The notes under the pieces: model-generated
The model's database searches: none
Told to the model about the DNA's origin: nothing
Seen by the model: only the letters and a program-made list of their open reading frames with translations
Part shown: in pieces, positions 6,502 to 50,480 of the stretch
Position numbering within the stretch: the first letter of the stretch is position 1
How the letters are laid out: every line of letters begins with the position of its first letter
Position numbers and translations under genes: made by a program
DNA from: Eledone cirrhosa
Lineage: Eukaryota
Length of the DNA: 64,000 bases
Reading direction: 5' to 3'
NCBI GenBank assembly: GCA_964016885.1
Contig: OZ024754.1
Coordinates: forward strand, 45,384,001 to 45,448,000

Positions 6502-7244
6502 CTATATATATATATATATATATTTCTTCATTGAATTGGCTTGTTCGCTTTGTTGTATTCGTTTGCTTTTTGAAATAAATACAGACATATATATATATAT
6601 AGATAGATAGATAGATAGATAGATAGGTAGGTAGAAATAAGGATCATTCTAGTAGGGCAATCAATTAATAGCATCTGCCACACAAGTATATGATTCTAAT
6701 AACTTAAACATAATTTTAAATATAAGATTCTGATTTATAACTTCTATCAATACCAACATTATTAATTTTAAAAATCACTCGTATTCACGCCTATACACAC
6801 AAACACATACAGATACATACACCCACACCCACACACACATACCCCCCCCACCCACATATATATATACATCATGTATATATATACACATACATATATATAT
6901 ATATATATGTACAAATATACATATATATAAATGAAGTAATTCCGTCGGAAAAGTCCAGGAAAGAAGAGTGCTCTATGTAGGTAACAGAGCTTAATAGTTA
7001 TGTAATAAACAACATGAGGCAATTATTCCATTTACCAGTGGTTTCTTAAAAGCAAAAGATTTTGCTTTCAATCCTCAGAATGAAAAAATCCTGGTCTGTT
7101 TATTGAATTTGGATTTAAAAAAAAAAAAAAACTATATATATATATATAGTTATATATATATATATATATATAGTTATACTTGGATAGGGACATATTGTTG
7201 TAGTAATATTGGCAGAAATACTAATAGAACACACTCACTGCATG

Positions 7245-19274: not shown

Positions 19275-19478
19275 ATATAGAAAAGGTCTCTACAGGTCTA
19301 GAACTGTTTCATTCGGGAGAAATCATCAGGAAGCTGGCAGTCGGCTTCTTGATGATGTCTTCCGAATGAAACAGTTCTAGTCCAGTAGAAGGTTTTTCGA
19401 TATTAAATATTTATACTCTGCTTTGTATTGAGTACCTTACTTACTGTGGTTACCCCCGATTGAACCCGGGATAAACTT
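19268..19478 (+). mobile_element. Fold-back element, family C copy 1, with HHR-like core in both arms
   Basis: Imperfect arms ~19268-19335 and 19342-19410. Minus arm reads CTGATGA-TTTC-TCCC-GAAT-GAAAC, plus arm reads TTGATGA...GAAAC. Tail homologous to 23985-24124. Confidence 0.8.
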
Positions 19479-23627: not shown

Positions 23628-23684
<57 letters not shown>

Positions 23685-23914
23685 CGGGATGTTTGTTTAC
23701 AAACACACCGAGCATTATAATAAATGTTCGGTGAATCCATACGTACACATATATATGTGAGCATGTATGTATATATATATATATATACATACTACTGTGC
23801 GTCTGTATACATATATGTATGTACGTGTACATACTTATATTTAAGTAACAGCCGTACTAAGAGTGGGAAATGAAATTTCGTTTCATTTTTTCCGTATATA
23901 TATATATGTGTGTG

Positions 23915-24235: not shown

Positions 24236-24811
24236 CCTTGCGCGTGTGTGTATTTCTTAGTAAGTTATACCTTTTACCATTAAGGTGTCATTAAAATACC
24301 ATGGCATAACCGTTTTGCTGCAGTTTAGACAATGATTGACAGTAGTCAAAGAAAATTATTATTAGAATTAATATTAATAACAACAGGGAACCAAAAGTAT
24401 ACATGATGGTCATTGTAGAGGTTATGTAGGACACCAAGACTCTTCTGACAACTAGAATCAATGAGGCATGTAAAAAGCCTTCTAAATGATAGATAGAAGT
24501 GCAATTACCTATGAACTCATGCATATGTTTCCATACCCCCCGCCCATAGGCACAGACACACACACATATATACATATATATATACATATATATAATTAAG
24601 TTAAAGTGTACATCTACATATGTATACGGAAGTATTAGTATGCATATAAATACACACATGTATACATATGTACATGTACTCAGCTTTTCACTAGACACTT
24701 TACAGTGAGTGTCAGCTAGTCTGTATGTAACCACACAGGCGGACCGGGTTTTAGAGTCATACGAGTTTTCAAGGAAACACATTTCCTCTATTCTCCAGAG
24801 GGCCAGACAGG

Positions 24812-24856
24812 AATATTGGACTAGTTTCGATGTTATTACATCTCATCAGCAATATT
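24812..24856 (-). ncRNA. Canonical minimal type I hammerhead ribozyme
   Basis: Minus strand AATATTG-CTGATGA-GATGT-AATA-ACATC-GAAA-CTAG-TC-CAATATT: 7-bp helix I, intact core, 5-bp helix II, palindromic helix III (ACTAGT), GUC triplet. Predicted cut between 24819 and 24818. Confidence 0.9.
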
Positions 24857-25174
24857 TACCCATCTTCCGGCTTCTCTGGCACCCTCACATCTTTCTGTGT
24901 CTTTTCTTCCTTTCTCTCTACGTCACTCTATCCCCACTTTCTCTATCTCTCTCTCTCTCTCAATCTCTCTCCCGCACACTATATTTATATTTATATATTT
25001 ATATATATATACAAATTTTAGTACAGCATTAACGAATCTTTAGGCTGCGGCTAAGCTAACGAATGCAGATTCAGAATGTAGCTTTAGCACTCGGTGGAGA
25101 ATAATACCCCAGAGTTATAACAATACGTTTAGACAGCTTTGCAAATCAAATATAGCGATCGGCAGTCCAGCCGC

Positions 25175-25188
25175 ATTGCCATAGCAAC
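25175..25188. promoter_or_regulatory. RFX X-box-like motif
   Basis: ATTGCCATAGCAAC, one mismatch from GTTGCCATAGCAAC, in a locally CpG-richer non-repeat stretch. Confidence 0.3.
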
Positions 25189-25791
25189 GAAAAAGCCTGG
25201 ACTCAGGAAAAGATTTTTAATTGACCTGCACCATTACGCGGAGACCGAATGCAATACATAATGCATATCGTATAGCATACGATATACATCACATACAACA
25301 TACAACATCCACGCTTGGTTTCTGTAAATCCGAGATCGACTAATTCCGCTTGCAGGGGTATATACATACATATATATCTATGTATATATCTAAATATATA
25401 TAATGTATACTTCATGTAAGGCTTGCTTTCTAAATTGATTGATAAAAAAACCCACGTTTATCCACTCTCACACATTTCCCACCCTCCTGCATTTCAATTC
25501 TTTTACTGTATTTTATTTTCAAGAAAGATCTGACATAAACTTTAAGCAACTATGTTAGTTAGATGCTACTTTAGAAGAACGATGGCGAAAAAGATAAAAT
25601 AAGTCAAGTAAATATAAACATTTCTACCTATATAACAAGCTTGAAGTTAAAGTATTTAAAAAATGTATACGTTGAATAAAACGAAAAGTATCAGTTTATG
25701 AAAAAAATATTTCAAAATTTCAAAGACTTTGAATTTTTTTTCAATCTATAAACATTTTCTTATAAATCATGTCTCAAATATCCCTCTTTCC

Positions 25792-49179: not shown

Positions 49180-50472
49180 CTACATTTTAAATTTAAATTT
49201 ATATTTAAACGTTGAGTTCAATCTATGTCTGCAGCACCTGAATAAATTTGTCCGTAGATTAAGGGAATTTTTAGATTTTAGTATAAAGAATATCTCCTCC
49301 GCACAGAGGTCACATGTCTGAGAGGATGAATTAAAAGGAATCCCCCTTGAAACTATATTCCAAGTCGTCGAATATCTAACGTTATCATGCCTAAGTTGCC
49401 AGAGTACGCCTGATAGTGCTGTTGAAGATTTTTTGGATGGATCTGTGAAAGAATTATTGTGGTTGTTATAGCGAAGTTTAAATTCCGTCGATGTAGAACC
49501 AACGTAGTTAAAAGAATTAACGTCCGTTTTAACATTACAGTTGTATATTATATTTTTAACTAAGCAGTTGTTATTTAACGGACATTTAGATCTATCTCTA
49601 CAGTTACATTTGTTAACTTGGATATTATTTATGCTATTATCGCTAGGTTTTAAGTTCCTGTTATTTATTCTATTAATATTTTGCGCTAAATTTTTGGTGG
49701 ATGAGTAGGTTAGTTTTATAGTATGTCTATTGAAAATTGAGTGATACCTATGTGTTCTAGGAAAGCGATTATCAAGAGCTTTAAAAAATAGTTTAGCAAT
49801 GTGGGTTTTAATGTTTAGTGAGAAAGGGGGGGCAAACCATATTATATTCCTAGTTCTATTTCTTTTATGGCTTTTGGAATTATTGTAATGCTTTCTATTA
49901 TAGTTGTTAAGGTTGTGGCCGTAATTAAAATAGTTGTTATTTTGTTTAATTTGTTTATCATTATCTATGTACATAATTTTATCACTATATCCTGCTCTAG
50001 CTAACGCTTCATTGTAATAATGGGCTTTTTCGTCGAAAATCTTTTTATTAGATGAGATTCTAGAGATACGTGATTGGACAGAGTTTACTATAGTATTTTT
50101 AACAGATCTGGGGTGGTTAGAGTTAAAGCTGACATAGTTTAAGTTTTCATTCAACTTGTGAAATGGATAGTGAAGACATGTGTTGAGATTTAATGTTATA
50201 TCTAGGAAGTTGACTATTCTATGGTTATTCTCAATTTCTATTTTTAGATTAAAGTGATTAAAAAATTGTGTAATTTGTTTTCTTTTTCTATTTAGTTCAG
50301 AGTTATTATTATCAATAAGTAAAAGCATGTCATCTCTATATAAACCTCCGGTAGTACCAGGTATTTTCCTATGCAGCGAATTGATTAAAAATAAGCCCAC
50401 AAGGTCAGTTACCTGAGCTGAGTCATGGTAGTGACTGAATCTTAACCATTCTACTATGTCAGGGTATGTCAT
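49180..50472 (-). CDS. Penelope-like element RT (C-terminal part) + GIY-YIG endonuclease, 5'-truncated, reading frame intact
   Basis: 430 aa: DSAQVTDLVGLF (RT motif B region), GGLYRDD catalytic motif, NFLDITL, RNIIWFAPPFS, Cys linker CNCRDRSKCPLNNNCL, IIY...YVGST..FKLRYNNH (GIY-YIG), C-terminal CDLC...CRH. The first ~16 aa are not RT-like, so the Met is probably fortuitous. Confidence 0.93.
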   Translation of the reverse strand: MTYPDIVEWLRFSHYHDSAQVTDLVGLFLINSLHRKIPGTTGGLYRDDMLLLIDNNNSELNRKRKQITQFFNHFNLKIEIENNHRIVNFLDITLNLNTCLHYPFHKLNENLNYVSFNSNHPRSVKNTIVNSVQSRISRISSNKKIFDEKAHYYNEALARAGYSDKIMYIDNDKQIKQNNNYFNYGHNLNNYNRKHYNNSKSHKRNRTRNIIWFAPPFSLNIKTHIAKLFFKALDNRFPRTHRYHSIFNRHTIKLTYSSTKNLAQNINRINNRNLKPSDNSINNIQVNKCNCRDRSKCPLNNNCLVKNIIYNCNVKTDVNSFNYVGSTSTEFKLRYNNHNNSFTDPSKKSSTALSGVLWQLRHDNVRYSTTWNIVSRGIPFNSSSQTCDLCAEEIFFILKSKNSLNLRTNLFRCCRHRLNSTFKYKFKFKM

Positions 50473-50480
50473 GCATCATC

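Follow-up and report, generated by a model that had tools for sequence, protein, structure and literature searches.

The window, the whole 64-kb stretch of Eledone cirrhosa DNA that was analyzed, carries on its minus strand a hammerhead motif that an earlier note described as minimal and solitary, within non-repetitive sequence. Is this motif a genuine ribozyme, and what kind of element brought it here? Read from 24856 to 24812, it consists of a 7-bp helix I (AAUAUUG/CAAUAUU), the core CUGAUGA, a 5-bp helix II (GAUGU/ACAUC) with an AAUA loop, then GAAA, the palindromic ACUAGU and GUC. All of these parts were read on the minus strand as the note had reported them, and our placement of C17 at 24819 agrees with its predicted cut between 24819 and 24818. 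Since a strict type I descriptor failed to find the motif in any of 100 locally shuffled windows, the hammerhead is not due to chance. Comparison with Rfam, which the note had suggested as a check, matched the motif to HH9 (E = 5e-6), with a score of 31.8 bits that lies below the 52-bit gathering score; at the gathering threshold, the whole 64-kb window gave zero matches. Matches of the neighboring AT palindrome to miRNA families scored far under the cut-off and were dismissed. With the core CUGANGA, GAAA, UH, three helices and an open helix I, the motif is by its sequence a genuine type I hammerhead, and self-cleavage is predicted.

The hammerhead is not of the smallest kind. By the definitions in PMC4209133, a min-HHR has a helix I of 4-5 bp, a long helix II and an unpaired base before helix II. 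In subfamily A, to which the window copy belongs, helix I is 7 bp with an extension, helix II is 5 bp, and no unpaired base precedes helix II. Under those definitions, the sequence is of the canonical metazoan type, its palindromic helix III being weak; "minimal" does not apply, as helix I runs on beyond a UA bulge. Canonical metazoan type I hammerheads (newt/axolotl type, with HH9 as the nearest Rfam family) similarly have a helix I of about 6-7 bp with a bulged extension, a helix II of 4-5 bp, and a helix III of 1-2 bp with a palindromic loop. PMC4209133 describes hammerheads with a weak palindromic helix III as active as dimers, the class to which the note had assigned the motif.

The motif is also not alone. 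Counting copies, another check proposed in the note, gave 901 occurrences of the exact hammerhead 45-mer in the 3.0-Gb genome and 0 of the reversed control. Moreover, all 286 nt of 24594-24879 match a tandem unit at 100% identity (Table 1). The window copy is thus an ordinary truncated member of a family, and the description of its surroundings as non-repetitive is wrong. The note's proposal of a "young solo terminus" held in part: the copy is young, truncated, a terminus and tied to Penelope-like elements (PLEs), but it is not solitary, as it makes up the 3′ 286 nt of a tandem ORF-less unit.

Table 1. Features of the window copy and its immediate surroundings
Feature	Position	Strand	Basis
Retrozyme copy of subfamily A, 5′-truncated (positions 184-469 of the 469-bp unit), with a single arm and a tail-less 3′ end	24594..24879	-	100% identity over 286 nt to natural unit L002:380-848
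Type I hammerhead: helix I 7 bp, CUGAUGA, helix II 5 bp, GAAA, helix III, GUC	24812..24856	-	Sequence; Rfam HH9; covariation
Predicted self-cleavage site, 3′ of C17 (C17 = 24819; unit 244/245)	24818..24819	-	Sequence position; cleavage predicted
Palindromic ACUAGU helix III (2 bp + 2-nt loop), predicted to need a second hammerhead	24820..24825	-	Invariant in 10 aligned A/B/C sequences; dimer rule as given in PMC4209133
Helix I domain extended by a UA bulge and further stems, which by prediction keeps both ends of a cleaved monomer together	24788..24879	-	Folds
Imperfect palindrome, AT-rich (unit 384-455), lying shortly upstream of the tail-less end	24608..24679	-	Self-match; hairpin fold
Target repeat of (AT)n type, directly next to the tail-less 3′ end	24566..24593	.	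Same junction 258 times in genome

The note had offered a second possibility, that the hammerhead is a host-exapted cleavage element on a transcript starting near an X-box-like motif at about 25175. The window copy does retain and fold the whole hammerhead domain. However, it is identical to hundreds of other copies and hence very recent, its helix III is weak and has no partner in cis, and the X-box-like motif lies inside an unrelated dispersed repeat of 345 bp (25015-25359; 2759 candidates, with 40 other copies of 93-96% identity among the matches listed). Neither the proposed transcript start nor exaptation is supported by these results, and we regard a host role as barely credible. The ends of the 25015-25359 repeat are reminiscent of DINE-1/HINE Helitron-type elements.

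The 469-bp units of subfamily A are arranged head to tail in arrays of up to about 50 copies and are about 99% identical; the internal junction between A units occurs 1244 times in the genome. The unit has a GC content of 0.37, and no tRNA head was found in it. No ORF of 100 aa was present within one array, L032 (G000:C1:95.62 Mb). This array, which extends over at least 28 kb and has a 7-unit higher-order repeat, is on its way to becoming a satellite. As a circular monomer, the unit has a predicted folding energy of -154.7 kcal/mol, compared to -95.0 +/- 5.8 for 60 shuffles (z = -10).

Two relatives of subfamily A were found. Subfamily B is young, has a 468-bp unit that is about 87% identical to A, and gave 223 matches in 39 scored candidates. 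Family C is older (423 bp in L123, with a 57-nt tail; 4064 candidates) and has kept the hammerhead. In an alignment of 10 hand-picked sequences from A, B and C, bases pair in 94.7% of cells, and both partners are changed in 6 of 17 pairs; as the sequences are related, this figure is not a probability. In the 53 tail-selected insertions that cover the ribozyme, 10 of 11 core columns were invariant and the remaining one was changed in 2%. Among changes to the ribozyme in these insertions, the common ones affected a loop base or the outermost base of helix I, turned GUC into GUU, or exchanged helix II bases in a compensatory swap. That the core is conserved suggests a role at some step for cleavage, which is predicted from sequence.

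With tandem units that each carry a type I hammerhead, no ORF, no tRNA head, low GC and dispersed recent insertions, the family is by these sequence features a non-LTR retrozyme, and expression as linear or circular monomer RNA is predicted. Metazoan non-LTR retrozymes, as described in PMC7229834 and bioRxiv 10.64898/2026.07.22.740005, likewise consist of tandem units that lack an ORF and each contain one type I hammerhead. They also share a GC content under 45% (37% here), a range from monomers to about 50-mers, a highly self-paired predicted circle, and coexisting PLEs. At 469 nt, the unit is longer than the 170-400 nt given in PMC7229834 and falls within the 51-972 bp of the 2026 preprint. 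Expression and circles have been demonstrated for the published retrozymes; for this family they are predicted.

To learn how the units spread, we examined 88 insertion clusters: the window copy, loci from the top of the list of places for the subfamily A hammerhead, and 60 loci from the top of the list for the tail. Except for the window copy, all came from contig C1. Two entries, L039 (a duplicate of L038) and one locus present twice, were dropped ahead of the counts. L038 and L039 (G000:C1:55.97 and 55.99 Mb) hold the same insertion with identical variants 17.7 kb apart, and represent either a segmental duplication or an assembly duplicate.

Insertions have two fixed 3′ ends, one at the unit boundary (469) and one at the end of a tail 74 nt beyond. 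Across subfamilies, the genome contains 2085 tailed ends followed by ATA, and the tail-less A end followed by RTAT is present 258 times. Both ends could be seen in 56 two-arm insertions. In 51 of them a tailed end was paired with a tail-less one, in the remaining five a tailed end was paired with an irregular one, and in no case were the two ends alike. An inverted tail-less arm was also found in 42 of 54 loci with both ends in view from the set of 60 picked only by the tail. The longer arm was the tail-less one in 29 of the 51 insertions and the tailed one in 22; as either arm may be longer, a model in which one arm is made purely by fold-back copying of the other is a poor fit. Inner junctions between arms were mostly blunt or had 1-6 nt of overlap. 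The flanks were mostly (AT)n, and words of 9-15 nt common to both flanks marked target duplications in L037, L046 and L048, although most could not be resolved inside AT repeats. At the window copy, no target duplication was seen. Like L041, L045 and a copy at C1:71.33 Mb, it is a single arm that lacks a tailed partner. With only one hammerhead, it is likely unable to release a circle and is probably a dead end.

This architecture resembles that of PLE insertions. As described in PMC3846280 and PMC8557442, these have an inverted, 5′-truncated arm, a tail on one side only and AT-type targets. PMC11167929 presents the PLE tail as the interval between two reverse transcriptase (RT) start sites, and the PLE enzyme as cutting and extending both strands of AT-rich DNA. 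Two 3′ ends 74 nt apart with head-to-head arms are the PLE "tail" signature, and the shape of the insertions therefore suggests that a Penelope-type RT is the copier. Also matching are the (TA)n or AT-rich targets in these three papers and their target duplications, which span about 9-15 nt where the flanks let them be recognized. The insertions differ from the published ones in that they contain no RT/GIY-YIG frame and that both arms are often multi-unit. Their tail, at 74 nt, is longer than the 30-40 nt of published PLEs; a coding family of the same genome has a tail of about 64 nt. We noticed no description of head-to-head arms, a tail, AT targeting or one haplotype per insertion for retrozymes in PMC7229834 and the 2026 preprint; the word "inverted" is absent from the main text of the former and occurs once in the latter. 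A limited literature search, at the level of titles and abstracts, found no description of a two-arm, one-tail structure or of per-insertion haplotypes for retrozymes, and supplements may bear on this point.

Two other explanations bear on these structures. In one, a coding PLE supplied the window copy as its solo pseudo-LTR, with the arrays arising as by-products. The PLE-type ends fit such an origin, retrozymes are related to pLTRs in the 2026 preprint, and our search for a coding partner scored 150 of 10,596 GIY-YIG candidates and examined 50 loci. Yet the units run head to tail without an internal region, no enclosed ORF was present in the 88 clusters where these could be seen, and an element-like spacing of 3.3 kb turned out to be seven units. 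We consider a pseudo-LTR origin improbable. In the other explanation, the family spread at the DNA level, through satellite excision and reinsertion or a Helitron-like rolling circle, with the hammerhead as a passenger. Local duplication is visible in large arrays, but the head-to-head arms, with their 5′ truncation at random points and their two fixed 3′ ends, match the coding PLEs in this genome, and the ribozyme fold has been kept by compensatory changes. Purely DNA-level spread is therefore very improbable.

If a Penelope-type RT copies these units, what was its template? We compared units within and between insertions. In 34 small insertions, 2997 of 3031 informative column-by-insertion cells were fixed, 28 had one deviant unit and 6 had two or more; the corresponding numbers for nine large insertions were 881, 27 and 10. 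By a strict rule, 31 of 41 multi-unit insertions differed from every other sampled one, and the other 10 lacked a strict fixed difference from some other insertion. Two insertions, L144 (15 segments) and L188 (8 segments), had zero deviating letters across both arms. An allele that was fixed in both arms and private among the sampled insertions was present in only 12 of 49 two-arm insertions. The cross-arm distance was less than the distance to the nearest other insertion in only 28 of the 49, although this is a crude and weak test. These two figures, and the 10 insertions that lacked a strict difference, count against a single founder. A circular template is nevertheless favored because a uniform haplotype of its own is found in so many insertions, and such uniformity requires passage through one monomer; we infer such passage through a single circular monomer from the haplotypes in the genomic DNA. 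In large arrays, variants were common to subsets of units, as in the higher-order repeat of L032 and in alternating variants at C1:14.04 Mb. DNA-level duplication thus also builds arrays, and gene conversion could homogenize units.

The 5′ ends of arms provide a second view of the template. On a cleaved linear RNA, 5′ ends should accumulate at the cut site. However, none of 145 mapped ends fell at unit positions 243-247 (1.5 expected), the ends were uniform overall (KS p = 0.58), and 76 of the 145 arms were longer than the unit plus tail (543 nt). Thus, the enzyme runs through the cut site, as it would on a circle or an uncleaved multimer, and the pattern expected of a cleaved linear template was not seen. 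There was no excess of variants at the cut junction of the kind that imprecise jumps would leave. One region, unit 441-469, just upstream of the tail-less end, contained 18 truncations (9 expected; p = 0.004, post hoc). This excess may be the trace of a collision, either with the second primer or with the AT hairpin.

These results leave a rival in which the same retrozyme and PLE enzyme use a different template, either a long uncleaved linear array transcript or a linear monomer that is re-read by seamless jumps. The uniformity of insertions would then come from young homogeneous parent arrays and gene conversion. An uncleaved transcript also predicts no stop at the cut site, the main substrate is unprocessed RNA in the experiments described in PMC11167929, arrays of about 50 units exist, and some insertions have a haplotype in common. 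Against such a template, most insertions (31 of 41 distinct) would each need a separate homogeneous parent, whereas the sampled large arrays mostly have unit-specific variants. Imprecise jumps on a linear monomer would leave an excess of variants at the cut junction, which was not found, and the conserved core suggests that cleavage matters at some step. On balance, a linear template seems unlikely.

We favor, with a probability of about 0.65, a retrozyme cycle in which array transcripts self-cleave, the monomers circularize, and a Penelope-like enzyme copies them in trans into (AT)n sites. Tandem arrays would be transcribed, and dimer-assisted hammerhead cleavage would release 469-nt monomers that are ligated into circles. 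The PLE enzyme, acting in trans, would prime on both nicked strands of (AT)n DNA at two fixed sites, and RT rolling round the circle would generate multi-unit arms. The observations behind this predicted cycle are units in tandem, head-to-head arms with 3′ ends fixed at two points 74 nt apart, insertion into AT targets, a single haplotype per insertion, and a conserved catalytic core. Two reports count against a cycle through cleaved circles: by the account in PMC11167929, cleavage is not needed for PLE insertion in vitro, and bioRxiv 10.64898/2026.07.22.740005 describes 8 of 9 Xenopus retrozyme dimers as lacking cleavage.

A more specific version, which we hold tentatively and at slightly under even odds, is that the family is a genomic record of the full retrozyme cycle. 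Here, the PLE enzyme would prime twice on one 469-nt circle, roll independently from each site and write a whole inverted tandem array in one event. If true, one-circle, two-primer rolling would explain both retrozyme arrays and the tandem, inverted and tailed structure of PLEs. Parts of this cycle have precedents. More-than-unit reverse transcription of circles was already proposed in PMC4209133, and mobilization of retrozymes by PLEs was proposed in PMC7229834 and the 2026 preprint. The route through circular RNA, proposed for animals in 2014 and 2020, has a mechanism that is still to be elucidated according to that preprint. As a very young and abundant family whose DNA itself shows a one-founder pattern together with the tail and inversion typical of PLEs, the units described here are more informative than a single copy. 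They give exact predictions (cleavage at 244/245 of the unit, a circular RNA of 469 nt, and RT starting at positions 469 and 74), making the question of retrozyme mobilization directly testable in vitro and in long-read population data.

We also searched for the element that might supply the enzyme. The 50 GIY-YIG loci examined yielded seven EN clusters, several with a CX2-5CxxC linker that PMC8557442 assigns to the Neptune and Nematis clades. In this genome, coding GIY-YIG PLEs have inverted arms (L117, L125), AT flanks, and two ends about 64 and about 40-50 nt apart. In one family (L112:2308-5121 minus, with L113, L121 and L123), a 938-codon frame lies between two terminal repeats; its tail is about 64 nt, and its hammerhead has the U3-A8 core variant (UUGAAAA), which PMC4209133 describes in Schistosoma. 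No similarity above z 2.5 was found between units A and C and 14 regions downstream of coding PLEs (50 of 10,596 loci examined), and no terminal sequence was common to the unit and the seven EN clusters from the 50 loci. Within the 88 insertion clusters, no coding PLE had retrozyme sequence as its terminal repeat, and no RT/GIY-YIG frame lay between repeats where these were seen, the far end of 7 long arrays being out of view. Candidate partners were explained otherwise: the matches in L106, L123 and L126 are older family C copies sitting in AT tracts, those in L122 are a related retrozyme copy (84-96% identical to unit A), and two exact hammerheads on C1 whose 3.3-kb spacing suggested a full PLE are separated by tandem units. 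Our guess is that the autonomous partner is a Neptune-type family with a long tail.

The window contains several other elements of these kinds. A 431-codon frame at 49180-50475 on the minus strand, to which Pfam assigned no family, reads as the end of a PLE reverse transcriptase followed by a C-terminal GIY-YIG-like domain; we take it to be Hydra-clade-like. The 3′ part and tail of a family C copy, ending in an AT repeat, lie at about 23683-23897 on the plus strand. It is 700 bp from the window retrozyme copy and convergent with it, and is likely an independent insertion. The earlier note's statement that there is no second hammerhead nearby is correct locally, but a complete, strict type I hammerhead of another family lies between AT repeats at about 7031-7085 on the minus strand. 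With a 7-bp helix I (one G-U pair), an 11-bp helix II, a 3-bp helix III and a GUA site, it might, given this longer helix III, act as a monomer. Finally, a short inverted pair of degenerate hammerhead-like motifs at 19281-19400, beside an AT repeat, resembles a PLE mini-insertion.
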